A stretch of DNA of 51,668 bases, the filler included, from Sphacelaria rigidula (taxonomy: Eukaryota), in NCBI GenBank assembly GCA_964200075.2. It is 3 parts of 3 records of this genome, joined end to end, with 100 filler letters (N's around TTAATTAATTAA, not from the genome) between each part and the next. Parts side by side here need not be neighbours in the genome. Positions count along the whole stretch, not along the records: positions 34,521 to 51,668 come from CAXNAA020001155.1; 2 more parts are not named here. One strand, 5' to 3'. Below, piece after piece: positions 17,170 through 49,689 of the stretch (its first letter is position 1; each line of letters begins with the position of its first letter). The notes beneath the pieces were generated by a model, which searched no databases, was not told the origin of the DNA, and was given only the letters and a program-made list of their open reading frames with translations. The translations under genes were made by a program, and so were the position numbers.

Positions 17170-17269
17170 NNNNNNNNNNNNNNNNNNNNNNNNNNNNNNN
17201 NNNNNNNNNNNNNTTAATTAATTAANNNNNNNNNNNNNNNNNNNNNNNNNNNNNNNNNNNNNNNNNNNN
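17170..17269. other. Artificial assembly spacer
   Basis: 100 nt of N with a central TTAATTAATTAA (stops in all frames). Confidence 0.98.
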
Positions 17270-26966: not shown

Positions 26967-27639
26967 CGCTTTTTTGAAAAACGAAGTCGCCTCCCACTCA
27001 CAGGAACAACAACTCTCTCCTTACACCGAGACGTGCTGTACCACCTTACAACGACAATAGCCACAGCGCCTCTTCCTCACGCAAGTCTCACCACGTGTTT
27101 GAAGTCCTTAAACTCCTCTTCCTGGCCGTACCTGGCCAATCGTGGAACAAGCAACTCTTGCTGGCTCAACCAGGCAGTAATTTCGCCGCTTTTCTGGAAC
27201 GTGCACGGGCTCGCCAGCTGTCGGTCAACCCCCGGCACCTCTCCCACGAGCGATACCACAGCCCACCCTAGCACTGCCTCAGAACCTCCTCGGCTCTACT
27301 TCTCCAACTCCTCGCGATGTTAATACGCCTTGAGCTGGTCTTGTTTGCTGCAAACTGATCGAACCTACAGATTTCTCTATCTTGATGTGTCAGCTGCGTT
27401 TTTAGCGGAGCTACCGCCTCAGCGGACTTAATGAACGTTCATTGTACACTTCTGTCACTCAAGATCAGATCGCCATGTGGACTCCTGCCATCACGGGCAC
27501 ATGGACTTCAGCAGCATTAGTTATTCATATATCAACCCTCAGCATAGTACAGGGGAACAGGACCATAGTCTCTCTCCACCAGAGTAGCAAAAACGGCTCT
27601 ACTCGTCATGCGGACAAGAAACTGAAAGTCACTGCGGAT

Positions 27640-30507
27640 CTGAAGGGTGTCACTAACCCAGACCTCCAGCGGACCCAACGCCTTGCACCGCGCCAACAGA
27701 TGCTGCACCGTCGCTGCAGCTGTACAAGACTCGGTGGGCTCCAACCACGCGAAATTGCACAGATCATCCATCATTAAAAAAATGATTCTGTACCCGTCGC
27801 CTTCATCCAGGCCGCTCTCGCCCAGCGGACCACTCTCGCCAACGTACAGATAATCAAAGTACATCACCTCACCGGGCCATGTGCCGTGCACTGACTCCCC
27901 TAGTGGCCGCGGGACCGTCTCACCCGCTTTCGAGTCCACACAATGCAAGCATTTCCTCACAAAATCTGTCACATGAGCTTCCATCGGAAACCCACAGCAA
28001 TACTCTTGCAGTCGCTGCAGTGTCGCCACAACACCCCACAACACCCCGATGACCCCCCTCCTTCATGTGAGGACACACCATCAATCGTATTTGTAGCTCT
28101 GTTGCGGCGTTATCCACAACACATTCCGCCCTGCCACATGCACGTGAAATAAACCCTCACTGTCTTCCGAAACTCACCCAGCAGCTGCTGCAAAAGTAGG
28201 GGCTCCAGCAACCATCACTCCGAACCCGGCTTGAGCCTGCTCTTGGGCCTCACGAATAGCGTTCGTCGACGGCAGCGTTTCATCAGGCTGACCGCTCGCA
28301 AATATGGTCGCAACACGCACAGACACCGCCGGAACGTTTACCCACCTTGGCAATGAATCTCCCCAGCAGTTGCGCTCACCAGCAATGTGCCTGATGGAGT
28401 AATCGTACTGCCCCAGCACAGTCTTCCATTGCTCGAGCCTCTGGGCAGCAGTCCTAGACACGGATGCAACGCACGCCTCGGGGTTCAAAATGTATGCTAG
28501 GTTACGATAAGCGGTGAAGATATGTACCCCACCCCATAGAAGATATTCCAACCTACGTGAAGTACTTACGATTGCATAGCCTTCCTTGTCCACCGTAGCC
28601 CAACGAACCTGCGCTCCACGGAAAGTTCCGCGAAGAACCCCATCGGCTCATGGCTCATGTTCTCCACCGCCGAGGTACCACCCAGCTCATCCTCCGCCAC
28701 CTGCGTAAGAAAACTCCCCCAGTGGAGATCCGATGCGTCTGGAAACATGAGCACCTCATACCCCTGCTTGGGATATGACAAAGCGACAGCATGCGCCGCC
28801 AAATCTTGCGCCTCGTGCCACGCCTGAGCAGGCCTGGACGTCCATGCCGACTCCTCGATTATCCGGTTTGACGCCACTCGCTTGGTACGGCGCACGTTCC
28901 CCTGCATGTGTTCCTCCAATAATACCTGCAGCGGCTCCACCACTTCCGCCAAACGCGGCAGGGACTTTTTCAGCCAGTTTTCCGCCTGCAGGAACTGCAT
29001 AAACTCGCCTGCTCTGCGCGGGCACCTAAGATTGGCCCAGCCCGCTCAGTCTCTCGCGGTCATGAGCCACTTGACCACCTGAAAAAACCTTTCCGCACCA
29101 CGTGATCTGTGTGTCGTAGAACATGCACTTGTTTGTGCGCAGCCGCGAAAAAAACAGCATCCTCCAAACAGCCCAAACTCTCGTCCAGTGTACACAACAG
29201 ATCATCCTCATCTGTATCCCACCACGAAATATCATCCACCCATACTTTGCACTGAAGTCCGGCCAGTAACCTTGTCATGATGCCTTGAAAATACCCTGTC
29301 GCATTCAATACCCCTTGCGGCACCCGTGTGGGGGTAAACAGATTTTATGGAGTCGCGATCGTGAATAGTTCTTCTGCATCAGCCGCCAACGGCATCTGCC
29401 AGTAACCCTGCAGCATATCAATCATGCCAAAACACGCAGCGCCTAGCAGTTCGATCATCTCCGCCTCGTGGTTAGGCATAACATCCGGAACCTCCTCAAT
29501 CTGCTTGTTTGCCGCGCGATAATCACTCATCCTTCTTCGGCGTCGCCATGGCCGCAGTCGCCCACACTGCCTGTAAGCTGCGGAATACGAGCCTAAGCAC
29601 CACCAGCGTCGCCACATACCCTGCTAACCATGCGGCCTTTACAGGGGAACAAACCCCGCGGGCTCACCTTGACTGCTGCAGCCCCAGGTTTGAATCTCAC
29701 TCTCAATGACTCTACACGAGCAGGCGGATCACCACGCAATGCTCGCCGAAAAGGGTTGACACGTTGTCCAACAACCTCCCGAAGCTTATCAACGTCGCTC
29801 GCCGACATCCCCTTGTCTGCAGCCGCGTATACTGCATGATCCAATGCAACACGACGCTCTGCCAGCTCCTCCTCTGGAGTCATGTTCATCTCGGGACAAC
29901 GTGACATCAATCGCTCAACGGAAAGATTCGCAGGCTTCTCTTGTTCACCTGGATCCCGTAACGCCTCAATCGCAATACTCACACGCCTACATTCTCGGAA
30001 TTCAGGTGTATCTAACTGTACACCTCTCACCAACGCGTGTCTTGAGCGAGCGCATGCGTCCAGCCCGCTGTACACGTCAATGTCCATGGCCTCCAGCGTA
30101 CCGCTCCCGATGATCACCACACCATCGCCACCTGGCATGACCGCATAATGACTCGGATCCAACACCACCGGCCCCCAGCTGGTGTGCAGAGCGGTGCGCA
30201 CCAGGCGCGGCTTTGACTGCATACTCCGTACATTACCATCAGCTAGTTTCGCCGGGTGTGCACGAGCCATGCTCGTGACAACTGACACATCAGGGAACAC
30301 TGCTTGCAACTGGGCCGCCACTTTTTCAGACATGATAGTGATGCCAGCCCCCGAATCCAACACGGTAGTAACAGGGTAAACGTTTTTGGCTGCGGAAGCA
30401 GGAACGGACAAGTCTGCCCGGCAGCATCGCTGCTTGCGGTCAACTACCACACCCTCAGCCTGTAAATTTGCAACCTCAGCGGTGTGCAGACCCCTCCGTA
30501 TGGGCAA
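27640..30507 (-). pseudogene. pol: pol of element A (aspartic protease, RT, RNase H, integrase; multiple frameshifts)
   Basis: Protease VLDSGA; RT DYRAANK, IDMLQGYWQ, PQGVLNATGYFQ, VWVDD; RNase H FPDASD, DKEGYAIV, HIAGERNCWGD; integrase HMKEGGHRG...CLHC, YFDYLYVG, VWVSDT. Confidence 0.92.
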
Positions 30508-34420: not shown

Positions 34421-34520
34421 NNNNNNNNNNNNNNNNNNNNNNNNNNNNNNNNNNNNNNNNNNNNTTAATTAATTAANNNNNNNNNNNNNNNNNNNNNNNN
34501 NNNNNNNNNNNNNNNNNNNN
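34421..34520. other. Artificial assembly spacer
   Basis: Same 100-nt N-TTAATTAATTAA-N linker. Confidence 0.98.
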
Positions 34521-35258
34521 AGGTCATCCCCATTTGCATATTTATTCGGGATATCCCCAGCACATAGGAATAGTAATCTTGGCGTACTCTTGCACATTTT
34601 TATAAGTCGTGTTTTGGATGAGATAGGGGGCTCCTAACAATTTTAATCTCAGAAATTATTTCTTTACCCCTACCGTAGCATCACTCTCCTACCAATCGGG
34701 AAATTGTCCAACGAAGCCGAAGCCGAAGCGAATTGCAATGTCGTTCACTGAGATCTCATAGAGTCCAACAGACCCTTCGTGCAGCAGCGATGTGAACGCT
34801 AGTCATACTCCTGCCTATGCCCTCTTCCGCATGCCTCGGCATCTGTTTAAGGCGTGATGAATGATCCAAACGCTATTACACGAAACGGATTACTTGCCCC
34901 TACGGATGAGCAGTTTTCCAGAGGACAAGTGGTCGACGACGCCATCACTGAAACGAAACAAACAGGTACTAGCAGCGCTTTCGTGAGAATGCCCACCATG
35001 AAGTCCCGGAGAAAATACGTGGTGAAATAGGCCAAGAACGAAAGCACGAAAAATCACAAAAAAATCAACGCTTAAATTGTTCGATGAAAAGTCGCAACAC
35101 CAGTTTTGTAGGCACAGCCCCGTCTTTTCCCTCAAACATTTCAACAACAATCCGCTCACGCATGTGTCGATAGCAGCAGTTTCCAATAAGGGGACCGACC
35201 TGCCGACCCTTGCCGGACCCCTCCCGGGAAAGGTCGCATTGCGACAATAGGGGCAATC

Positions 35259-37679
35259 CTATGGTGCAGGTTTCGAGAGTTGTACTTCCAACTTCACGGC
35301 TTCTTCATATTCTTCGGTGTCCATACTATTCGCTGGAACGACTTGTCTCCACGTCACCGATGGCGTCGTGCGAGGTCGCTTCGCCCTTTTGCTACTAGAA
35401 CTAGAACTACACTCGCTACTGCACGCACCAACCGCTGCCGCTGCTCTCGCACGCGTTCTCCCAGCAACTCTCGTCTCGTCCACACAACTTGTAGCAGGGG
35501 TGACATTGAGCTCCACCTTAGGGCACATGTTGGCCCCTTCCATATCACCCTGGACCACCGCGGTGGGTTTTGCGAACCCCGACGACGGTGCGTAACAACT
35601 CTGCACAGCACCATCGGGAACTATACACCGGCGATATATGCCACAATCGTCTTTCCCGCTGCTCTCTAAGTCGCATGCTGTGCTTTTAGCGTCGACCATC
35701 CCCTCTCTGGAATACTCTGCGCCGCAGTCGGCTTTAGTACCGTCTACCACGCCGAACGAAGTCACTGAAGAGCGGACTTCGCTAACGCACAATCTTGTCA
35801 CGTCGGCCATCTCTTCTGCGGCATGACTGACGCAGATATGTTTTTTGCCTTTGACGTCGGTCAACCCCTCTCTGTCATTACTGGCGCAGATTTCGGGCTT
35901 CCTGCTGCCTGCTATGCCGTACGATGGCTGTGTGGAGCAGTCGTCGTTGCCACACACGTTGCTTTTAACGTAGACCATCCCCTCTCTGGCATGACTGGCG
36001 CAGAATTCGGGCTTCCTGCTGCCCCCCGCGCCGAACGACGGTATCTTCGAACAGCCGTCGTGGCCGCACACTTTGCTTATTACGTCTACCATCCCCTCTT
36101 TCGCATGGCTGGCGCAGAATTCGGCTTTCCTGCTGCCCGCTATGCCGTACGATGGCTGTGTGGAACAACCCTTCCTGCCGCACGCTTTGCTTCTAACGTA
36201 GACCATTCCCTCTCTCGCATGACTGACGCAGAACTCGGCCTTTCTGCTACCCCCCACGCCATACGATGGTATCTTCGAGCAGCCGTCGTGGCCGCACACC
36301 TTGCTTCTGACGTTTATCATCCCCTCTCTGGCATGACCGGCGCAGAACTCGGCCTTCCTGCTGCCCGCTATGCCGTACGACGGCTGCGTGAAGCAGCCGT
36401 CTTTGCCGCACACTTTACCTATGACGTAAATCATCCCCTCTCTGGCATGACTGACGCAGAATTCGGCCTTCCTGCTGCCGGCTATGCCATACGACGGCCG
36501 CTTAGAGCAGCCATTGTTGTGACACACTTTGCTCACTACGTCTATCATCCCCTCTCTCGCATGCTGGGCGCAGAACTCGGCCTTCCTCTTGCCCGGCACG
36601 CCGTACGACGGCTGCGTGAAGCAGCCGTCCTTCCCGCACACTTTACCTATGACGTAAACCATCCCCTCTCTGGTATGACTGGCGCAGAATTCGGCCTTCT
36701 TGCTGCCCACTATGCCGTGCGACGGCCGCTTAGAGCAGCCGTTGTGGCCGCACACGTTTTTCACCAAGTTCACCATGTTCCCTCTTGCATGACTGGCGCA
36801 GAATTCGGCCTTCCTGCTGCCCCGCACGCCGTACGACGGCTGTGTGGAGCAGCCGTTCTCGCCGCACATTTTTTGTTTCACGTTCACCATCCCCTCTCTG
36901 GCATGACCGGCGCAGAATTCGGCCTTCCCGCTGCCCGCTATGCCGTACGACGGCCGCTTCGAGCAGGCCTTCTTGCCGCACACCTTGTTTTTGACGTTTA
37001 CCATCCCCTCTCTCGCATGTCCGGCACAAAACTCGGCATTCCTGCTATCCCCCATGCCGTACGACGGTATCTTCGAGCAGCCGTCGTGGCCGCACACTTT
37101 GCTTTTGACGTAAACCATCTCCTCTCTGGCATGCGTGGCGCAGAATTCGGCCTCAGTGCTGCCCGGCACGCCGCGCGACGGCTGTATGGAGCAGCCGTCG
37201 ATACTGCACACTTTTTGTTTCACTTGAAGCGTTCTCGCTCTGGCATGACCGACGCAGAAGTCGGCCTTCCTGTTGCCCGACACGCCGTGCGACGGCTGTT
37301 TGAAGCAGTCGTTGTTGCCGCACACGTTGCTGTTGACGTCTATCATGCCCTCTCTCGCATGGCCGGCACAAACTTCGGCCTTCCTGCTGCCCGCTATGCC
37401 GTATGGCGGCTGTGTGGAGCAGTCGTTGTTGCCGCACACTTCGCTTTTGACGTTCACCACTCCCTCTCTGGCATGCATGGCGCAGAACTCGGCTTTACTG
37501 CTGCCCGCCATGCCGCACGACGGCCGTATGGAGCAGCCGTTTCTGCCGCACACTTTGCTCGTTACATTCATTATCCCCTCTCTTGCATGCTTCGCGCAGA
37601 ATACGCCGTTTCTACTGCCATCAACGCCGTTTAAGACCCTTGATGTGCACGCTGCATGGGCGCAAACTCGACGACCCAT
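35259..37679 (-). CDS. EsV-1-7 cysteine-rich repeat protein (16 tandem 38-aa C-x4-C-x16-C-x2-H repeats plus a low-complexity C-terminal tail)
   Basis: Uninterrupted 806-aa ORF. Repeat consensus CGxxGCSxxPSYGxxGSRKAEFCAxHAREGMVxVxSKV matches the EsV-1-7 repeat known from Ectocarpus IMM-type proteins and EsV-1 virus. Basic KRAKRPR motif near the C-terminus. A splice acceptor (tttgtag) lies just upstream of the ATG. Confidence 0.9.
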   Translation of the reverse strand: MGRRVCAHAACTSRVLNGVDGSRNGVFCAKHAREGIMNVTSKVCGRNGCSIRPSCGMAGSSKAEFCAMHAREGVVNVKSEVCGNNDCSTQPPYGIAGSRKAEVCAGHAREGMIDVNSNVCGNNDCFKQPSHGVSGNRKADFCVGHARARTLQVKQKVCSIDGCSIQPSRGVPGSTEAEFCATHAREEMVYVKSKVCGHDGCSKIPSYGMGDSRNAEFCAGHAREGMVNVKNKVCGKKACSKRPSYGIAGSGKAEFCAGHAREGMVNVKQKMCGENGCSTQPSYGVRGSRKAEFCASHARGNMVNLVKNVCGHNGCSKRPSHGIVGSKKAEFCASHTREGMVYVIGKVCGKDGCFTQPSYGVPGKRKAEFCAQHAREGMIDVVSKVCHNNGCSKRPSYGIAGSRKAEFCVSHAREGMIYVIGKVCGKDGCFTQPSYGIAGSRKAEFCAGHAREGMINVRSKVCGHDGCSKIPSYGVGGSRKAEFCVSHAREGMVYVRSKACGRKGCSTQPSYGIAGSRKAEFCASHAKEGMVDVISKVCGHDGCSKIPSFGAGGSRKPEFCASHAREGMVYVKSNVCGNDDCSTQPSYGIAGSRKPEICASNDREGLTDVKGKKHICVSHAAEEMADVTRLCVSEVRSSVTSFGVVDGTKADCGAEYSREGMVDAKSTACDLESSGKDDCGIYRRCIVPDGAVQSCYAPSSGFAKPTAVVQGDMEGANMCPKVELNVTPATSCVDETRVAGRTRARAAAAVGACSSECSSSSSSKRAKRPRTTPSVTWRQVVPANSMDTEEYEEAVKLEVQLSKPAP
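35841..37664 (-). repeat. Coding tandem array, 16 x 114 bp
   Basis: 16 in-frame 38-codon units counted in the translation, followed by 1-2 degenerate units. Confidence 0.9.
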
Positions 37680-38599
37680 TACCTACAAACATGCACAACA
37701 GAAAGATGCATCGCACATGTAATCTAGCCACCGATGCGATGGCCACTTCCAAAAAGCCGATCACCGCCAGCGGTTGCGTTCTGCGGCACCGCCAGTCATC
37801 TGAACAAGCATCGTAGGCAGGCGGCATTTCCAGAGGAGGACGAGAGAACACCGTATCAAACGACTCTCACCGACAGGGCCAGACAGTGCACTCCATCACC
37901 ACTCCCCACTACGAACGAGTAGGTGTGAAGAAATGATCCAGCGCGAATTGTTAGCAGTGAACATTTCTTCGCCGTCCGTATCATGGCAGTTACGAATTAC
38001 CTGGTATGCGCGATACATGTGGCGACCGTGGGCTTGACGCTACTATAGACCTACCGGTAAGAACTCTCATCTGTAGGTCTAGAAAATATTTCGCTCTGCT
38101 TTGCATCGCGGTTCCAATTTGTTTTCTTCTTCCATTTGTTATAATAGAAAAGGAGCATAATGAGAAATCATGCGTCAATCTAATCTCGCAAGCTAGGGTG
38201 AGAAATAAGTGATACCGAGACGGTAAAACAGCACGCGAACAAACCAGCGACTTCAAGGAGGGCGGCAGTAGTACGTGCACTGCCTTACATCTGCTGGCGA
38301 CACGTTTTCGGTTGTTTTCGACACGCTCCTCGCCATTCGTCTAATACAGAATGGATCTCCGTCAAACAAAGACTGTCGTGTGTAGATTAGCAAGGGCTAG
38401 CAGTACAACTACTGCGCGTGAGTGGTGGGTGTCTGTCCGTGTTTTTTCGGTGGGTGTGTAGGTGTTGTCTTGTTTTGTTGCGTGGTGTCTGCATCATTAC
38501 ACAGACCTCGGACCTGCTTGGACGAACGACCACTTCCAGACCCGCCGCATTTCTACTACTCGTGCCGCCACTTGGATATCCTGTACAGCACACAACCAC

Positions 38600-38987
38600 A
38601 ACTGTGTACAGACAGCGTGGTGTCTTGTACAACAGTAGTGCAACAACAGTGTGATATTGCGGTATTCTCTATTCTCGGTGGCAAGCAGCTGATGCACACT
38701 GTATACAGTCCGTGTCGTCAGAGCATCTAGCATCTTTACAATCGAGCATGCGTGTACTATACACGGCCGTATACCCGCAAGTAGGTACACTTGTAAAATC
38801 ACACCATCATTTTTTTGTGAGTACCGCTGTCTGCCGTGCAGACACAATATGTACAGCGGACAACAGACAACAGACGACTGTGTACAGACAGCGTGGTGTC
38901 TTCTACAACAGCAGTGCGACAACTGTATGATACGGCGGTATTCTCTATTCTCGATGGCAAGCAGCCGATGCATACTGTAAACAGTCT
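38600..38987 (+). repeat. Direct duplication of ~110 bp
   Basis: ACTGTGTACAGACAGCGTGGTGTCTT...GGTATTCTCTATTCTCG.TGGCAAGCAGC at about 38602 and 38877. Confidence 0.85.
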
Positions 38988-39489
38988 GTGTTCAGGTTCT
39001 AAAAAGTCTGATACCACTGTAGGACTTCTGTGTTGTGTTCAGTGTAATACTCTGTACTGCTATATACCCTGTAGGACTTCTGTATTTTAACAATGGGGAT
39101 TAAATTATGTGGGAGGGTCACGTTGTGGGCAAGCTCTTGAAACGTTCTGATTGATTCTGAAGATATATTCTGAAAAAGATCGAACACTTCTCTGTTACAG
39201 AAATCCAATGTCGAATCTGAAATGGCCTGAGACAACAACTAATTTTAAATTTGGAACTCTGAAAATCCTGCTGGGAGCATGCGTTGTACATTCATCAAGG
39301 GCCATGCGTTGGGCAACCATGCTTTCAGCCAGGATTCCTACACCCGGTAGGAATGTAACTTCTTCCATCCTTTGGGAATTAATACACATATCAAAAGTCA
39401 TGAATCCAACGCTTGGTTCATGGAGAACAAACTAACACGATAGAACATCGAACTGGCTTGACTGGAGAAGGGGGGGCATGACAGGGTCG

Positions 39490-39590
39490 GGGGGAAGGGG
39501 ATACTCATGATTCTGTATGCCGCAGTCATGAGACCTTTGCCTTCTCATCCCTAAAAAGCCGAGACGGAGCACGCCAACTTTTCGCTGGAC
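39490..39590 (-). mobile_element. Old 3'-end remnant of the same LINE family
   Basis: Shares GTGCTCCGTCTCG with the LINE 3' end, plus ...ATGACTGCGGCA...TGAGTA and a C-rich tail. Confidence 0.5.
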
Positions 39591-40699
39591 AAGGCTTGCA
39601 ATCACCAAGCGCGAAGAGCCGTGATGTGATCATCAAGACATACAAAGAATGAGCTGCAGCCTACTGAAAAGTGTTGGACCCGAAGAGAACAAATGGCGGT
39701 GCATGCCGATGACAGCCTCAGATGAGGTGCGTCATTTTCTGGTATCGCCATTTTCAGAGACAGCGAAGGGTTACACCGCCTCACGGGTGTCTCACCACAT
39801 CTACACTACACAGTACGACCATCCTCCTTGCGCGGCTACCCCGTACAACATGACCTGACTCGACCACCTTTCACGATTACCGTGAAAAAAAAAAAGCCAG
39901 TATGACAAGACGGTAATCTGGATCACCTGGTGTGTTCTGCAGCGTTATTGCTAACAGATGTACCCTCAGGGGGCCCGGGTGGGGAGGGAGGGAGGAGGGG
40001 AAAAGCTGTCTTCGCGCGGTGGTAACTGTCCCTAGATCGGGGCGGTGCCTCTCGTCTTCGTCTATAACGTACAAATAGCGGTGCCAGGCTTTGGTATGTC
40101 TTGTTGGAATATTCGGACTACCTGCAGCGGGAACGAACAACTGATGCCACATTCGAAAATGAAATCAAGGAATTATCTTCTCACGGAGAAATATACGATC
40201 ACAAAATACCCTCTCGCCGTGAAATGACGCGGGACGCCCCGTATGCTTTCATGCGATTCTAGCCAAGTTTTAGTTGACGTCATATGATGTTGCTGAAAAT
40301 GTCTTCGGAACTTCGATGCCCTGCGATACGAAGGTCGTGCAGACAGCGCAGTGGACGCTTCAGTCGGTCGGTAGCGGTACATGGATCCTCACGAGCGACC
40401 GCACAATTACGTTCCAGGCTGGACAGTTTTCGCCCGACAAGAATGCCACCCGGGAGTCGTAGACTGAGCAACTACGGATAGTTGTTTACGATGAACCCGC
40501 TATCGCCGGTTGTTTTTTTCAGAGTGCGATTTAGCTATATGTACAGTCATAGTTGAGGCTTGAAACATATACGTGAGAACCTGTGAACCTTCGTTTGCGG
40601 CTGCCATGAGGAATCTGCACCACAAAAACAAATGGTAAGTGGCACTGCGTTTCGTTCGGTTTGTATATTGACATGCTGGAGTGGGGACCGGGCTGGACT

Positions 40700-41190
40700 C
40701 TCACAGGAGAAGATTCGACCGTGCCGTGAGGCTCGGCACGCCAATGTGACGCGACGAGATAAATTTGCCTCGCGACAGTCGGCACAGGACGAGATATCTT
40801 GTCCATACCACCCGTCGTGTCATCCAGCGATGTTGGTCCCGTCCCGCTTATACACGTTAGTAAGATGCCTCATCCTGTCGGGTAAATATAGGGACAACAA
40901 CATATCCCGTCCAGTCCAGTCCAGTCCGTTGTTTGTTCGCCAGGCTTATCGGGGGGGGGGAACCTCGCGGGGGATCTCGCGGAACGCGACATCATGGGGA
41001 TTACCCCCCCGGCCCTGTCATACTGTTGGCGAGGCGGAGGTGTTCCCGTCCCGTACCGTCATCGGTTTGGCGAAGGAAGCGTGTTCCCGTCTCGTTAACA
41101 CGAGAAATGTCTTTCGTAAGGTATTGACGTGTAATCTCACGGGATTTACGGTTGACGGAACGGGCATTCCTGTCCAACCAGGCGGGAACT
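40700..41190. repeat. Degenerate element built from CCCGTCCCG / CGGGA motifs
   Basis: Recurrent CCCGTC, ATCCCG and ACGGGA words. Termini not resolved. Confidence 0.4.
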
Positions 41191-41194
41191 GTAG

Positions 41195-43825
41195 TATATC
41201 TTTGTACATCTGTTGAAAAAAAGGGAGACAAGGCTGACCCAGGGAGCTATAGAGGGATAACGCTACTGAACGCGGTAGGGGAAACATTCTGAAAGATTGT
41301 GAACGATAGAGTAGGAACGATGCTAGAAGAGGACGAAAAAATCAGCGAGGGACACGCAGGATTTACCCCAAACCGTAGTTGCGTAGACCATGTGTACACC
41401 CTAGGTAAGATTATTGAAGGTGGGAAATACGCCGGGCTGACGACGTACTGTTTTTTTCTGGACGTGCAAAAAAGCTTTCGACACAGCATGGAGAAATGGG
41501 CTGTGGAAAAGGTTGTGGGAAACTGGGATCAGAGGAAAGATGTGGAGAATGGTGAAGAAGATGGCAAATGTGCCAAAAGTGCCATGATGCTAGACGGGGA
41601 AACATCGAAACATTTTGATATTTTACGAGGAGTTGCGCAAGGATGGACGTTATCACCCACTTTTGTTCAAGGTATTCATTAACGACTTGGTAATAGCAAC
41701 AGAAGCAGCAAATCAAGGCGGGTAAAGATGTAATATCAGGTTTGATGTTCGCAGATGACTTTGTGGGAATTTCAGGGACAGCAGAAGGATTGCGAAAACA
41801 ATTAGACAAGGCGCTAGAATACACTAGCAAATGGAGAGTGACAGCGAATGTTGACAAATGCGCGGTGCTCATCTGTAACGAAGATGGGAAAAATCCGGTA
41901 GAGTTCAAGTGGAAGTGGGGAGAAGAGGAACTGCCAGTCGTAGACTAGTATACATACCTTGGTGTAGAGATCTCGAAACACTGTTCTTGGGATGCACACA
42001 TAAACAGGTACTTCCTCTGTTCCACTAAAGAAGCCCGTTTGGAGGTTTTACCGTGTTTCTCGTGCGTATTTCCGGCTTTTCCCTGCGTTTTGTTTCGTTA
42101 TTCTCGTCAAGTTTTGGACCAGAACTCGAAACCAAGGTTTTTGCCGAGCCCCGAATAGACAAGCAGCTACACTCACGGCGATCAGAGTGTGTCGGTCGTG
42201 CGCAACCAGAATCTACCGGTTGACAGCCTTTCCATCGATTTTGGAGAGGAGTGATTTTTCATGGTTTCCGAGGCGTTTCGGAGAACCGCCCGGAACCGTC
42301 ATTTTTCAGTCTGCCGCCAATACAGCACTATTTGAGCACGAAATCGGCCATACATGCCGGATTGGGGGGGGGGGTATACGCGCCTATCCCGGGGAAAATA
42401 TCATGTTGTCCCGGGGTCTGGAGGGTCTTCTCGTTGTCACACATGTCCCCAACACCTCGAAACACACTACTGTGGGTCTCCGCATCGAAAAAAAGGTTCT
42501 TTGTACCCCCTGCATTGCACATAGAGCCAAAGTTCCGCCAAAACTCTGGCTCTCCTTCGAAAAATCTCACTACATAAGCCCACTTTGTGATTTTTCACGC
42601 CGGGAATGATAACATGTGATCCCCTGGGGCTGTTTTGTTTCTTTACATGATGGCAACCATGTGTGGAAGACATGTTTAGGGCCCGTATGTCGAAAACAAC
42701 TGTATTGGACACATTATCGTAATACTTCACCACGGGCTTATCTTGTGGGACAGCGGAAGTAATAGAAAAGGGTAAAACACAGATAGGCAGGGTGGGCGTG
42801 ATCCTCAGAGACTCGTACCTAGACAGTAGGGTTGAGAGATGTATCCTGATGGATGCGATCGTACCAAAGCTGGAATATGCAAGAGAAGTATGGAAGGGGA
42901 GCGTGAAATTGGTGAAGAAGTTAGAAACAGTACAGGCAACAGCAGCTAAGAAGATACTTGGATGCTCAAAAACGACGAGTAATACAGCACTGAGAGCAGA
43001 GTTGGGAATGTACTTACTTAAAACAAACAGAGACATGGGGAAATTGCGATGGCAATATAGCGTAAAGAACACGCAGAGGAAGAGATTGCCAGCTATAGTT
43101 GATAGGGCTGTATGGAAGAAAAGTACGAAAGGGCATGCTATAAGGTGGGATAAAGAGGTGGAGAAAGTGTGGATGGAGATAGGAGGAAACCAAGACGAAA
43201 TACTGTCCATAGGTGAAGACGGGGGGTACAAGGCAAAAGTAAGAGACATGATATGAAAAAGGGGGGGAATGAGCGCTCAGACGCAAGGTAGATGAGGAAG
43301 GACACCTGAAGATATACGGGGGGTTGAGAGAGGGGATCGGGATGAAAGTATATTTACATGGCCCAATGGACGCGGCGGAAAAATTGAAACTGCGACTTCG
43401 GGTGGGGGATCTGGACCTGCCAGAAAGGAGAAAGATATACACCACTAGTCGTGTGGAGGAGGAAGTAGATAGACAGAACTACTCGTGTGGCATAGCACTA
43501 GAGAGCAGAACTCATGAAGTGGCAGAATGTGAACTATACAAGGAGGAACGGGACGTGCTAGAGGGGGAAATGCGGCACGTAAACGAAGATGGCATGAAAT
43601 TGTTTGATGCATTAGACAGGAGATAGATGATGACCAGATACGGCGAAACAAGACGGGGAAAATATATGTGAAAGGTTTTTTTGTAATGTATGGAAGAAAC
43701 GTAATGAGCGCCGGAAAGTTGAAGGTGGCTCTATCAGGAGTAGGAACGGTGCTCCGTCTCGAAAGGAATGCATGGTCAATGGTAAAATGACCAAGGCAAG
43801 CAACAAGTGAGTACGCCCCCCCCCC
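41195..43825 (+). mobile_element. 5'-truncated, decayed non-LTR retrotransposon (RT plus C-terminal Cys/His remnant) ending in poly(C)
   Basis: YRGITLL, GFTPNRSCVDH, FLDVQK, GVAQGWTLSP, MFADD, YTYLGV, PKLEYA, LRAELG, SCG..ESRTHEVAEC. Stop at 43808-43810, then GTACG and C10. Confidence 0.9.
42011..42759. mobile_element. Tc1/mariner (Stowaway-like) non-autonomous element inserted in the LINE
   Basis: TA duplication at 42009-10 and 42760-61. Imperfect TIRs CTTCCTCTGTTCCACTAAAGAAGCCCG / CGGGCTTATCTTGTGGGACAGCGGAAG. The LINE reading (WDAHIN..VIEKGK) resumes after the insert. Confidence 0.85.
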
Positions 43826-46800
43826 GCCCTCCTCCGTAAGGTCAACTTTTCGAAAATCGTCATTTCTTTTTTCTTGTTTCGCTACATTTGTTGAAGAAAG
43901 TAATCAAGAACCACTGGCAAAACCGAAAAGTCTGGTGGGCTTTGAGGTTCATATATTCAGCTTCTGCTTCTCGACCGCTCTGTCCCGATGAACTCGGGTG
44001 TCGGCCACGCCCACACATATGTATGCACACGAGCGCACGGTAGCGATAGCCTGTAGTCAACGTCGCAATATTTTCTCACGCCTCGTCAAACTTACCCGGA
44101 CTGCTGGTAGGTACTCGAGGCACACGAGACGGAACATGATACCATAAAAGTAATCATGGTAAGTGATGAGCTTGAGGGGGGCGGTTCGCCATCTGAGCGG
44201 TCTCCATGGAAGGATCTCTGCACACGGCAGCTGACCACATCCGCCAACGCCTCGGCTATAAACTAGGGGACAGCAGGCTGGGTGCCCCCCCCCCTACACA
44301 TGTAAACTGTGGAATTATGAGAGTCTATCATGTATGCTACGAGTACCGAAAGCCCATCAGTCGCAGACGGGAAGTGGAGCATGTTCGGGTCTTACTGCCA
44401 TGGGTCAAGCAATCCGTTCTATCGGCACGAATGTAGCTGGAGTTGATCGTATGTACACCGCATGCGATTTTTCTTTTGGCTTGAGTTGTAGGATGGAATT
44501 TTGTCTTGATAGTTCATGGCATAGGGTTTCACTTACAAGGGCCACTTCAGTCTAGTCCATGTGTATGTATGCGTGATTTTTTTTGTCAGCTGAGTACCGA
44601 TAAAATCAGCACCACTAGTGAAATGTTTGACCTAACGTTCACAATACATGGTGTAGTATACTCGTCCATGTTTCCACGGCACATCAAGTGAAAGGTGAGG
44701 ATGAATACAAAGTGTTATACCTGAAGGTGAGTAACAAGTGTGCTTCATGCAAGGTCAACAAAGGAAAATTACACGACTTAATATTCATCACAGAGATGCT
44801 GCAATACTGTTTCACTGTTATCACGGCGTGGATTCTCCTGAGCAGGGATCCCTGATCGGAAATCTCTCAGCATCCACTTACCATCCCAACCCATCGATAG
44901 CTATAACCAACATATGGTTGAAAAGCACCATGAGCCATACTGTCTTCGGCCAGGCCTACCCACATCTCCCGGTGATTTCTGTCGACCGAGTGAAGGCTTA
45001 GAAGTACCGTCGGTCACACCTCATATCACTTTTTCCCAAGATATATCCACTAGTCACCCACAAATATCAAAAGCCATACAGATTTCACGACTCCCACCAT
45101 GCTCTCTTCATAATTCCATGGTATAAAACAAATGAAATACACCCAGTCTTGTGCAGCTTGTCCTGCCATCTTACACAGCAAGTCCCTGCTGTTTCGTGTT
45201 ATGCAACAAAAGTTGTTTACAAAAACAAAAACACGATCATGTCAGAATCATCAAGGGTAGTTGTCCACCACCACCGACACTAGTCAAATAGGGAGTTGTG
45301 ACAAAAGCGTCACAGGCACGCTATCTATCGATCTATGGAGATATTCAAACTTGTCCACAACAAAACCCCTGCAGGTTTGTCTTGTCCATCAGCTCTGTTC
45401 ATCATTTTGAACATCATTTTATTCCTCTGATTCTGACCCAATGACTTGCTGTCTTCATTTCTTCCAGTATCTCAAAATGTCAGGTCCTCTCGTACATTTC
45501 AGCCTTTCGTTCTTTCATGTCTCATTCATATCACTCACCAGTATACTCATTAAAGCAAGTATTTTCCTTGAAAATCTCACTCGCGTTTGTAGACACGTAT
45601 GACTTGAATCCAACCCAGTACTCCATTTTTCTCTTAGATTTGACGGAGAAGCCGGCTAACACCGTCATATCTGGGGGGGTGATGTGAGCACCAGGGTAGT
45701 CCACAAGTCTTCCACGTGTCTACAACCGCCCCTTCGTTCCAAGAACGTTCATATCTCCGGCATCATTCCGGGAACTTTCTCAGGAACACTAGTCTGTCCC
45801 GACCGGGTCAATGTATATTCCGTCCGGGTCATTGTCTATTCCGTCCGGATCATTGTCTTCCCGTCCCCGGAGTAATAGTCATACTCCAAGTCGAGACGGC
45901 ACCGATCCCGGTGCCCTCTCGAGGCACATCTCATCTCGACCGCGGAGTTCCCTCCACACAAGAACGAACTGTCTAGGCACGTCCCACGGCCAAGTCCGTG
46001 GCTTCCGGAGACTACTTCTCCCACTCCTAGGGGTAGTAGCCTTTTTGGCGTCGACGGTAGGATTTACTCCTCCCTCCTTGAATACTCGATCTTGGGGCCA
46101 GTGTCCCGAAATCTTTTCTCGACAGACCCCTGGTTGCACGCATAGATCTGTGCTTTTCAAGGATGTCTTTTCTAGGAGGTAGTCCTCAACCGTGCATACT
46201 GATGTTGATTCGTGCATGATGCGGTGCGCACCCTTGGGTACAAACGTGTATGTGGGATGGTTTGGCACCTGCACAAGTATGTGATCACCCGTCCTCTGAA
46301 TCACACATTGGTGCCATTCCCGCGGTAAGACTTTTTCGATGCCGAGAGGTTACCATCTGGCTGACGACACAAGGAATCGGAAGTAAGTGTGGGCGCGTGC
46401 TACACATTGCGCGGCGATCCACTAAGCACGCTTCCACTCCATCCCCAGCGACAACGACATGCACACGCTCGTAACGCCTTCCTTATCGGTGAGCATTGCT
46501 GTTGTTTGCATACATGACTACGGAAGGAGATATCCCCAAAAATGAAACCCGCCTGAATGCGCCACAATCACCGCCTGTTTATTTTGGATTCCACCCATTT
46601 ATGATCTTATCTATTGCGCTTTTACGCCGCATCTGACATGTTTCAACACCCCTCACGCAGGTGGCAATATTTCGATACACACAGCAGCTGTAGAGAAATA
46701 TCAAGTTGTGCTGTGTAGCTAATACGCAAGCCCACCAGCGCTCAGGGTTCTGGCCGGGCGAACCCTTGTCACTAACACATCGAGGTAAAGTAAAGGTAAT

Positions 46801-48449
46801 CTACTTCGAATATCGAACTATCCCAACAGTGAGTTGGTGCGATCTGTAGTTAGTCTTCTATAGAGTTCCAGGGGGCTGAAAAAAGTTTGCAGTGACAATA
46901 ATTTTCCATTGTGTTTGGCGCGGACATATGGAGAATTAACTTTTTGGCTTGCACCAAGACCAATGTGTATCCAAGCTGCTTGGGAAGAGGTATTCATCGC
47001 TAGTTTGTGCGCTGTACTGGGTGTAATTGAGCCATACTTTACTGAGGACATAGCTTCAGAGACATAACAGCAGCTGTGTATCAACGACGTTGTGATCTTA
47101 TATTCCGTCTATTTTTGACTCGGCCACGTCTTTTTGTTCGGGTAATGTTAAAAAAACTTTTCACTAAATCGGGCGAAAAACTGTTCCTACACGAAAATGT
47201 TTATTTTCCGTCGAAACCACCTGTAGCCCCGGTGTCCCAGTTGGCACCCTCGAAACATCCTGAATTTTGAGACGAGGGTTCGGATCTCGGTGAAGTCACA
47301 CGATCTGGGACTTTTGCTCACATCATGCCCAACAGTTATGGGGGCGAATGAAGGTCTCACCCACCAAAAATCCGTTTCCCACAAAAGATAAAATGAATGC
47401 GGAAGAATATTGAAGACGTCATAGACTGGTCGGGCCTGTGCCGAACCTCTGCTGAACCTCTGCCGAAAATGACACGCTCCATCCCAAGTTACCTAGGTTT
47501 AGTATGCGACAGATGTCGTCTTTTTTATCGCAATTCTCTCGAGACAGGAAGCACAGCAGCCTCTGGAACTTCACAGCCCCGCACACACACTAGGCCTATT
47601 CAGCACCGCAAGCGGATTTGCTCCATTCGCTACAGGGGATCCGAAAAGCCCCAGAACCTTGTAGGGAACGCGTTTTTCAGAACATTTTGTGTTCGATGCA
47701 GCGGTTTGCAAAGTGCTGCAGGCCCCGCGGCACGCGTACCGGTGTATGGGAAGCGCACGCATCAAACCACAGTCCAATCCTATGCCTCGTTGCCGAGAAA
47801 ATAGAGTTGAAAGATAAGCACAACAACATACTGCAACAAGACGGGCACAACAACACGAGCAGCAGCATCTATCCTCCTGATGTTGTAACCCTGTATACAG
47901 GTGTACTGTACAGCAAGGTCAGTCACAGGTGTGTTGCAGAGTGTACTATTGCAATAGTACATTTTGTATGAGCGCCGTCGTCATTTCGAGTGACGCGTGA
48001 ACTTGTGATTGATACTGATTGGTTCATTTAGGCTTCATTTCTTCTGCATTCAACTGACTATTGAGTTGGTCGGTCCATATTCCAGGCATATAGTGTCCAA
48101 AATCGGGCCCCAATCACCCCCATAACAGTGGACGGCGACAGCATCGTTTTTACACAAAGTTCGACGTCACGGTCGACGCGAGAAAGAGACCGCCGAAACC
48201 TCCTCACGAAGAAAGGCATCAGTCTGGGCCGAAATATAAGTAAAATTTGGACATGCAGCGCAATAACTTTGGCAGTTTCAGCTTTTTGGTCGATCGCTTT
48301 TTTCATCGTTTTCGTGGTGTTCTCGCGTAACTGTCAAGGCCGTGAATTTTTCAACACAGCACAGTCCTGCACGCGACCACAACACCCGAAACAGGGGTAG
48401 TCAGAGCTCTCGTGCGGTAATCACCGTCAAAACGACTTTCGGTCTGCTG

Positions 48450-48610
48450 ATGAACATGTATGTTGCTGGAGGCACTGCTGAGAAAGTGTCCAGAAGAACC
48501 CTCAATGAAAATGAGAGACGCGCGTTGATCGAGGAGCTCTTCAACGGCAGCAACAATGCCAAATTGGTGAAAGGGGACCTGAAGCGATGCGCGGATATGT
48601 TTCTCTTCAT
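48450..48610 (+). pseudogene. N-terminal HTH fragment of a plant-type mariner transposase
   Basis: RRTLNENERRALIEELFNGSNNAKLVKGDLKRCADMF resembles the N-terminus of DD39D mariner transposases. No catalytic domain follows. Confidence 0.55.
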
Positions 48611-49689
48611 GCCCTGTGCTCCGAGGGTCGATTGAGCAACGAAACCCCTTGTGTGTGACGTGTATGATGTACCACGTACCATGGCGCGCGCTAATACGTG
48701 GGGCGTTTTGTCCAAAAGTGCACTAGCAGGAGGGCACTGTGTGATGTCTGCACTTGAAATCCCAGGGGAATTCAGGGAAAAGCGGGGACGCTAGTATGGT
48801 GTCCCCGGGTCATCCAGGAGACTGGCCTGACCTCGCTGTAGTACCAATCAAGACATCCTCGAAGTTTCGGCGTCATTACACGCGAGGTGCGGATTTTCTC
48901 GGCGTCTAACCTGCAAAAACACCGCCTCCATATTATCGAACAGGAATAACACTGCCGGGTGCACCTGAGTGCACAAGAAAATTTTCCGCACACACACACA
49001 GACACACACATGTGCCGTGTACTCCATCAAGATATTTTTTCAACTACGGCTACCCCCTGCGCCTTTGCACTTGAGGGTATTCACGAGAACCTTTCGAAAT
49101 ATCTCATACACCTCTTGAGGAGATGTCAATGTGACATGGCAAACATGACTACCACAATGCACTGCAAAGCGTCATCGCATGGGGTGGTATACACCATATG
49201 TTCCGTACAGCCGGGGGTTCAACACGTTCATGGGATACTTCGCTGACAGCCAGCAAGCCTCACAACAAGTTTGACGCGGCACTCCTACCTCTTCCGGCGA
49301 GCCCACAAGAATTATAACAGAGAACTGAAACGAATACTGGTCAATGTCGTGTGAGGCACAAGAAGGTAGCATGTATATGTTGATGGACAAGCGCCCTGTG
49401 CCTGACAAGAGCCGGGATAGGTGTACATGTGTACGTTAGGGTCTGTGCACGCCTCTAACGGGAAATATGCTCAACTCACCTACAATTAGCGAAGTCAGAT
49501 CTGACACTAGAGCCCACTCGGCGTCGCTCATTCACGGATGGGGTGCAAACCTCCCGCAAATTGGTACCCTGTGTCCCCACCTCTTCTAGCTCTACCAGGC
49601 GCCTCCACCCTCTTGTCGCAGTTTTTATACTGTATCATATTATTACACTGTGCACAGAATGCTGGTATATATTAGAATACGATAGTACG

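Follow-up and report, generated by a model that had tools for sequence, protein, structure and literature searches.

A new, unusually long and regular EsV-1-7 family gene from Sphacelaria rigidula: scaffold conservation, a modest variability hotspot, and possible functions of a 16-unit array

The window analyzed here, a 51,668-base stretch of the Sphacelaria rigidula genome (assembly GCA_964200075.2) made of three parts joined by filler, contains on its minus strand a gene for an 806-amino-acid protein built around 16 tandem EsV-1-7 units. The protein almost certainly belongs to the EsV-1-7 (PF19114) family, and the gene is a new, unusually long and regular member that appears to be transcribed and spliced. 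The units share a Cys3His scaffold under purifying selection, and within-array variation across the family is highest at one column of the unit, forming a hotspot there and in the linker that is real but modest. The array may bind a nuclear polyanion or nucleic acid, a role proposed tentatively; a residue code in which each unit reads one step of DNA or RNA is improbable. The family includes the developmental regulator IMM, is shared with giant viruses, and has a biochemical function that is described as unresolved in the portions of the literature available, as an earlier note on this DNA had stated.

A STRICTLY PERIODIC ARRAY OF EsV-1-7 UNITS

A scan of the window for open reading frames (ORFs) placed 806 codons and a stop codon at 35259-37679 on the minus strand. 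The first unit begins at residue 6, and the units recur strictly every 38 residues and remain in register. The interval that the earlier note had assigned to an EsV-1-7 array, 35841..37664, coincides to the base with the span from unit 1 through unit 16. A profile search for the domain, one of the checks suggested in that note, matched Pfam family PF19114 (EsV_1_7_cys) in 16 stretches with a score of 700.3 bits (E 1.4e-216; cut-off 25), and Tandem Repeats Finder (TRF) reported a period of 114 nt at 35865-37602 (15.2 copies, 75% matches, 0% indels, score 1647). The pattern C-x4-C-x16-C-x2-H is present in 15 of the 16 units; in unit 16 an Asn at residue 601 replaces the His ligand. Apart from that missing His, the scaffold is nearly fixed, as had been described for C/C/C/H and PSxG...AEFC...HAREG. 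Among the 15 units from 2 to 16, P10, G13, and C23 are kept in 15/15, S11, E21, H26, and R28 in 14/15, A20, F22, A27, and E29 in 13/15, and G30 in 12/15.

The features of the coding region, in window positions, are as follows.

35259..37679, minus strand: coding sequence, 806 amino acids plus stop, wholly inside exon 2
35841..37664, minus strand: array of 16 EsV-1-7 units of 38 amino acids (114 nt) each, with 0 indels (TRF, Pfam, pattern, and a hidden Markov model [HMM] built from the array)
35877..35879, minus strand: codon of residue 601, Asn for His in unit 16 (unit alignment)
35682..35840, minus strand: degenerate remnants of one or two more units, at the start of the tail (array HMM, i-E 0.013 and 0.00013)
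35370..35390, minus strand: basic cluster KRAKRPR, residues 764-770, resembling a nuclear localization signal (NLS), with a Ser run ahead (sequence motif)
35286..35297, minus strand: VKLE, residues 795-798, fitting psi-K-x-E (motif, at chance level)

The array is basic, with 91 K/R against 50 D/E (net +41, pI 9.2). The tail that follows it is a unique stretch of 193 residues, slightly acidic (net -4, pI 5.3) and rich in Ser and Ala, on which Pfam stays below threshold (14.5 bits against a cut-off of 25). The NLS-like KRAKRPR reported earlier stands in this tail; five of its seven residues are basic, it is matched in 2.35% of 2000 tail shuffles and thus lies above chance, and its composition suggests a nuclear localization signal. 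The SUMO-like motifs named alongside it, PKVE at residue 720 and VKLE at residue 795, are indeed present, but psi-K-x-E/D is matched in 23% of tail shuffles, which is chance level.

Besides PF19114, the only Pfam family to appear in the 806-amino-acid protein was DUF1490 (PF07371; whole-protein E 1.4e-9), which had no single passing stretch and was rejected as a spurious sum of weak repeat matches. The HMM built from the array units found no other EsV-1-7 unit in the six frames of the window.

RELATIVES IN BROWN ALGAE AND GIANT VIRUSES

The founding member of the family is gene 7 in EsV-1, an Ectocarpus virus. Its founding paper is reportedly that of Macaisne et al. 2017 (Development 144:409). 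A search for relatives returned 170 proteins at E<=0.001, and the figures given here rest on the 120 listed (searched proteins, 443-1411 amino acids). All 120 carry PF19114, and the named ones come from the brown algae Sphacelaria, Ectocarpus, Pylaiella, and Scytosiphon. Structural neighbors in the atlas were without exception PF19114 clusters; those with recorded taxa are 91-100% viral, mostly Nucleocytoviricota, and these matches bear out the earlier statement that the family is common to brown algae and giant viruses. An atlas feature search with PF19114 left out gave no usable match, and a scan of IMG/VR with a four-unit query gave two loci with matches of only 12-17 residues and no arrays.

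The present protein shares with the family the spacing C-x4-C-x16-C-x2-H, the 38-residue period, and the layout of an N-terminal array followed by a long nonconserved tail. The 38-residue spacing is dominant in the 120 relatives (304 of the unit spacings counted), where the median stretch ahead of the first unit is 40 residues and that behind the last is 221. The difference lies in the number of units: there are 15 strict units here, plus the one with H to N, versus at most 11 in any of the relatives; a looser unit pattern gives a median of 7 and a maximum of 16, this protein included. The array is the longest and most regular among the 121 proteins compared, which, together with the apparent transcription of the gene, makes it a convenient substrate for first biochemical work on the family. 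No orthologue was found among the 120 relatives (identity of 29-62% over 19-72% of the query, and of 39-62% over 27-65% for the top-ranking matches), nor did the tail have a relative among them.

Column 13 of the unit is almost evenly split in the relatives between G (179) and N (184), and the strongest covariation within the unit is that of column 13 with columns 17, 21, and 27. This pattern suggests two unit subtypes in the family.

As far as the accessible parts of the cited sources go, the EsV-1-7 family is among the largest gene-family expansions of brown algae, with 2018 proteins in 31 genomes (10.1101/2024.02.19.579948); Table S17 of that work lists family genes and may already include the present one. 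Members tend toward stage specificity and expression in unicellular stages (10.64898/2026.04.27.720984). IMM (IMMEDIATE UPRIGHT) of Ectocarpus, which likewise consists in part of EsV-1-7 repeats, is the only member with a mutant phenotype and is a developmental regulator, described as a protein of unknown function (PMC12993054; PMC7457493). IMM is described as having a unique amino-terminal domain followed by five repeats, whereas here five residues precede 16 units; the array starting at residue 6 thus sets the present gene apart from IMM, of which it is not the orthologue. The Ectocarpus Tc1/Mariner transposase TcMar-2_Ec32 carries an N-terminal EsV-1-7 domain (PMC12477816); it shares the motif with the present protein, in which Pfam found no transposase domain. 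Binding of a nuclear polyanion by EsV-1-7 proteins has already been published as a hypothesis, and zinc binding by Cys3His is treated as one as well. In the accessible part of the literature that uses the term EsV-1-7, no report of a residue code for the repeats was found.

EVIDENCE FOR A SPLICED TRANSCRIPT

Nine of 11 public sequencing runs contain at least half of the words of 35100-37900, and none of the runs is recorded as RNA. Four runs were compared with 34600-39600, including X4, X6, and X8, which are small runs of about 80 million letters each from one study. Contigs of X4, X6, and X8 span 34627-37801 and, among the pieces listed, have 0 letters that differ from the genome except for two in X8 record 31. 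All of them leave the genome at 37801, where they continue with identical letters that depart from the adjoining genome sequence, whereas the DNA-like run X1 passes unbroken across this position (record 5, 37068-38227). The loose end of the contigs has one exact match in the window, at 49482-49509 (0 matches in 100 shuffles), and the AG at 49481-49480 could belong on either side of the joint. Read on the minus strand, ...TTGTAG closes the upstream exon, GTGAGT comes next, and ...TTCAG stands directly before the downstream exon. Because the contigs are spliced over a canonical GT-AG intron, the gene appears to be transcribed and spliced. The following features of the transcript were placed.

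49480..49509, minus strand: 3' end of an upstream noncoding exon in the 5' untranslated region (UTR), of which the last 30 nt were placed (contig joint in X4, X6, and X8)
37800..49479, minus strand: 5'-UTR intron of 11,680 nt, GT...AG, with donor GTGAGT and acceptor TTCAG (contig joint; X1 reads through)
37680..37799, minus strand: 5'-UTR part of exon 2, 120 nt, with four upstream ATGs and an in-frame TAG (sequence)

With the in-frame TAG two codons ahead of the start ATG, a single exon contains the entire coding sequence. The four upstream ATGs open ORFs of 10-23 residues, one of which overlaps the main start in another frame, and they may exert translational control.

An ORF of 603 amino acids on the plus strand (35823-37634) faces the array and matches no Pfam family. 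It was set aside as a gene, with the GT-AG intron sitting on the minus strand; its openness is attributed to the composition of the repeat.

ORIGIN OF THE RECURRING TRIPLETS

The 16 triplets at columns 7-9 are exactly those listed in the earlier note, which had read them as a small vocabulary of recognition residues: TSR, SIR, STQ, FKQ, SIQ, SKI, SKR, STQ, SKR, FTQ, SKR, FTQ, SKI, STQ, SKI, and STQ for units 1 to 16. Their variability does not fit that reading. Per-position entropy, a measure that the note had itself proposed, is 0.72, 1.43, and 1.46 bits at columns 7, 8, and 9 of units 2-16, below the values of columns 3 (2.39), 15 (2.15), 35 (2.01), 36 (1.86), 33 (1.83), and 25 (1.82). Columns 7 and 8 are conserved in this array, at least six columns outside the triplet are more variable than any within it, and column 9 ranks about tenth; 11 columns have entropy of at least 1.43.

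The reuse of triplets appears to be largely inheritance from a few unit types. Recurring triplets tend to share codons: STQ is TCC ACA CAG in four of four copies, SKI is TCG AAG ATA in three of three with the same four codons ahead of each, FTQ is TTC ACG CAG in two of two, and the three copies of SKR differ at one synonymous site. Outside the triplet, units with the same triplet are slightly more alike (identity of 0.790 over 13 pairs) than units with different triplets (0.754 over 107 pairs; permutation p 0.022). R9 and R11, both SKR, are mutual nearest neighbors outside the triplet (0.88), as are R13 and R15, both SKI (0.86), whereas the four STQ units do not cluster. Taken with the identical codons, these neighbor pairs indicate reuse largely by descent, and, since identity among units is highest at a lag of two, they point to duplications of two-unit blocks.

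Divergence among units 2-16 averages 0.24 at nonsynonymous (dN) and 0.52 at synonymous (dS) sites, a ratio of 0.46, and with a mean dS of this size the array is old. At the ligand columns, the nonsynonymous proportion (pN) is 0 and the synonymous proportion (pS) is 0.74, and purifying selection on the scaffold is shown. Relative to overall pS, pN is 1.0-1.44 at columns 3, 15, 25, 36, 9, 14, 35, and 32 (1.26 at column 9), 0.52 at column 7, and 0.86 at column 8. A test of selection at the variable residues, also suggested in the earlier note, therefore gives values compatible with neutral change.

COLUMN 9 ACROSS THE FAMILY

A small vocabulary does not extend to the family: 398 in-register units of the 120 relatives contain 222 distinct triplets, and the residue at column 9 shows no dependence on columns 3, 7, and 8; by corrected mutual information its best partner is column 35 (0.12). 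K (217) and T (78) predominate at column 8, and column 9 is flanked by the conserved K8 and P10, with M31 in the linker of 360 of the 398 units. At column 9, R (0.26), Q (0.21), I (0.15), and H (0.07) are preferred, and D and E are each at about 0.01 or less; the main states R, Q, and I are the same across the family and in the present array.

Sixty other arrays, each with four or more in-register units, were used to measure mismatch between units of the same protein, which removes divergence between proteins. Mean within-array mismatch is highest at column 9 (0.81), followed by columns 36 (0.77) and 35 (0.74); 20 of the 38 columns exceed 0.5, and the median of the nonligand columns is 0.55. 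Column 9 is the most variable column, alone or jointly, in 17 of the 60 arrays. In paired tests it exceeds columns 35, 11, 3, 24, 7, 8, 15, and 25 (p 0.019 down to 2.5e-7), although these tests overstate independence because the arrays compared are paralogues, and it cannot be separated from column 36 (p 0.28). The hotspot at column 9 and the linker is thus real but modest.

Eight pairs of close relatives (61-85% identical) were considered, and six of them yielded 27 corresponding units. A difference at column 9 is seen in 8 of them, which equals the mean of the variable columns (0.30) in a small sample of pairs among the relatives, and variability between pairs follows variability within arrays column by column (rho 0.75). 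The comparison across the family yielded no triplet word, no contrast like that of TALE arrays, and no sign of fixation of variable residues between close relatives. If there is a specificity determinant, column 9 and the linker columns 35 and 36 remain candidates for it and the whole triplet does not.

PREDICTED STRUCTURE OF THE MODULE AND COMPARISON WITH KNOWN SYSTEMS

A model of four units (residues 268-423, from a 61-row alignment) had a mean predicted local distance difference test (pLDDT) score of 85.8 and a predicted template modeling (pTM) score of 0.45, and a single unit (residues 345-385) had a pLDDT of 87.5; the modules are therefore predicted with confidence, but their mutual arrangement is not. 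According to DSSP, columns 1-6 of the modeled unit form a Cys knuckle, columns 12-14 and 20-22 are strands, columns 24-26 make a one-turn helix that carries C23 and H26, and the conserved linker contributes a further strand at 31-33. Each module quite probably holds one zinc ion. Foldseek returned nothing at E<=0.001 (best E 1.1 for four units and 5.6 for a single unit). Among 48,161 chains, a wide VIA-align search found one at Z>=2 with the four-unit model and five with the single unit, all weak: the RING domains of MEX-3C (Z 3.0), IDOL (2.8), BIRC7 (2.6), and CGRRF1 (2.0) and the zinc-binding domain of nsp13 (2.0). Fold searches with such an outcome rule out no family.

The RING and nsp13 matches recall treble-clef sites in the order of elements, the modeled unit running from a Cys knuckle through a hairpin to a helix whose start holds the last two ligands. 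The matches are weak (Z 2.0-3.0, rmsd 2.5-2.9 over 38-40 residues), and the unit offers one metal site against the two-site cross-brace. A RING cross-brace requires eight ligands for two zinc ions.

Arrays of C2H2 zinc fingers also resemble the present array in being tandem four-ligand zinc-type modules with a conserved linker and a basic character, and in the idea of one module per DNA step. Their spacing is C-x2-4-C-x12-H-x3-5-H, whereas that found here is C-x4-C-x16-C-x2-H; the predicted helix, a single turn of three residues, is no recognition helix, variability does not center on a few positions of the helix, and no zf-C2H2 family was matched at E<=0.1 in Pfam. The earlier description of a nuclear zinc-finger-like array is upheld in part, by the confidently predicted small module, the net charge of the array, and the basic cluster of the tail. 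TALE and PPR arrays are helical repeats without metal in which code residues stand in near-binary contrast to the scaffold. The strict period and a column 9 that varies over a few preferred residues are reminiscent of them; the contrast here is only 0.81 against a median of 0.55, and the present array has no pattern of a few hypervariable positions. The modular reading by analogy with C2H2, TALE, or PPR proteins, which the earlier note had put forward, is not supported in the form of a triplet code.

PROPOSED ROLE AND ALTERNATIVE EXPLANATIONS

The charge of the array, the basic cluster, the fusion to a transposase, and the hypothesis already in print are the grounds on which a nuclear polyanion- or nucleic-acid-binding role is tentatively favored. 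The gene, a transcribed and spliced nuclear one in a genome of brown-alga type, would encode a protein in which each of 15 modules most likely coordinates one zinc ion through three Cys and one His. Each module would be small: after a Cys knuckle come a beta-hairpin, a one-turn helix with the C-x2-H, and, in the conserved G-M-V-x-V linker, a third strand. The modules would form a basic string of beads without fixed mutual orientation. Such an array could lie along a nuclear polyanion, with DNA as the first candidate and RNA or chromatin as the second, and contact it by way of the basic and aromatic residues conserved in each module, while the variable surface columns (3, 9, 14/15, 25, and 35/36) would at most tune preference. 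The small set of triplets may go back to the duplication of a few ancestral unit types, in part as two-unit blocks (R9-R10 to R11-R12 and R13-R14 to R15-R16), after which the copies diverged while purifying selection maintained the scaffold.

Family membership, anatomy, transcription and splicing, and selection on the scaffold are shown by the data; zinc binding, nuclear location, and the polyanion ligand are what we infer. Several points weigh against this proposal. Neither zinc nor nucleic-acid binding has direct support in the present data or in the parts of the literature available. No solved structure is related in sequence (PDB, 0 at E<=1), and the weak structural neighbors are all protein-binding zinc modules, RING in four of five chains. 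The kind "RNA" for X4, X6, and X8 is a guess about runs of one study for which the spliced joint is the sole argument, and the four upstream ATGs could limit translation.

The structural neighbors would be accounted for if the zinc beads were docking modules of a protein-protein or chromatin-protein scaffold, in the manner of RING, LIM, or B-box, with a charge that is incidental or serves acidic partners. Variation spread over many surface-type columns is also what diverse protein interfaces would be expected to show. Z scores of 2-3 on a 41-residue model carry little weight, however, the four ligands per unit fall short of the eight in a RING cross-brace, and the net charge of +41 and the transposase fusion (PMC12477816) fit nucleic acid better, so that such a scaffold is unlikely, though to be taken seriously. 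A narrowed form of the earlier note's idea has a single base, or a short step, of DNA or RNA read by each 38-residue module, with column 9, perhaps together with columns 35/36 or 3, setting specificity on a fixed scaffold. The top rank of column 9 in within-array mismatch, its excess over eight columns in the paired tests, its few preferred, nonacidic states, and its conserved K8/P10 flanks speak for this code, and the M31 linker and the strict period are as found in arrays that track a regular polymer. The contrast is nevertheless weak, column 36 is inseparable from column 9, and the tests draw on paralogous arrays. In the present array, column 9 ranks only about tenth, recurring triplets share codons, which indicates descent, and the pN/pS of column 9 is indistinguishable from neutral. 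Its changes between close pairs resemble those of the other variable columns, and neither Foldseek nor VIA-align found a nucleic-acid-binding structural analogue. It is accordingly improbable that modules are read out in this way, and equally so that EsV-1-7 arrays are an unrecognized class of modular nucleic-acid readers with column 9, possibly with columns 35/36, setting preference; if they were, a 16-unit protein would recognize a target of about 16 steps or more, such as repeats, transposons, or viral DNA.

Two further explanations concern the nature of the gene itself. It might be part of an integrated giant virus or of a transposable element instead of the host genome, in favor of which are the sharing of the family with Nucleocytoviricota, weak retroelement remnants in the window at 27532-28044 and 29593-30507, and the high-copy repeats that flank the gene. 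This origin is very improbable given that 0 of 18 ORFs of at least 150 amino acids in the 51.7-kb window match a viral hallmark family, that the 5' UTR holds a spliced intron of 11.7 kb, that no second EsV-1-7 unit lies elsewhere in the window, and that X1 depth over the gene (~61) is flat and far under the depth of the repeats on its flanks. Were the array a tandem repeat that is decaying or neutral and has no protein function, this would explain the lost His of unit 16, the degenerate further units, the four upstream ATGs, and the neutral look of the variable columns. Such decay or neutrality is scarcely credible for a frame of 806 codons that has stayed open without indels and yields spliced transcripts, and in which all 47 Cys/His ligand positions of units 1-15 and the three Cys of unit 16 are kept despite a dS of 0.52.

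SEQUENCE SURROUNDING THE GENE

Of the 18 ORFs of at least 150 amino acids in the window, only two give retroelement matches, weak ones that stay below the Pfam threshold. They lie on the minus strand at 27532-28044 and 29593-30507, and the domains concerned are the zinc-binding domain of an integrase (E 4.9e-4) and an aspartyl protease of gag type (E 5.1e-4). G+C content is raised to 0.54-0.55 over 26-32 kb, and the retroelement-like region there is probably a decayed long terminal repeat retroelement. Inside the 11.7-kb intron, very high-copy sequence reaches a summed X1 contig depth of ~85,000 at 38274-38440, versus ~61 over the gene, and probably consists of transposable elements; parts of 37940-39600 that are uncovered in X4, X6, and X8 are repeats in X1. 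The window also holds four runs of 44 N, in two pairs at 17170-17269 and 34421-34520, which are filler. The second pair lies ~740 nt past the stop codon and is adjoined by a very high-copy repeat at ~34600-34690, with an X1 depth of ~399,000.

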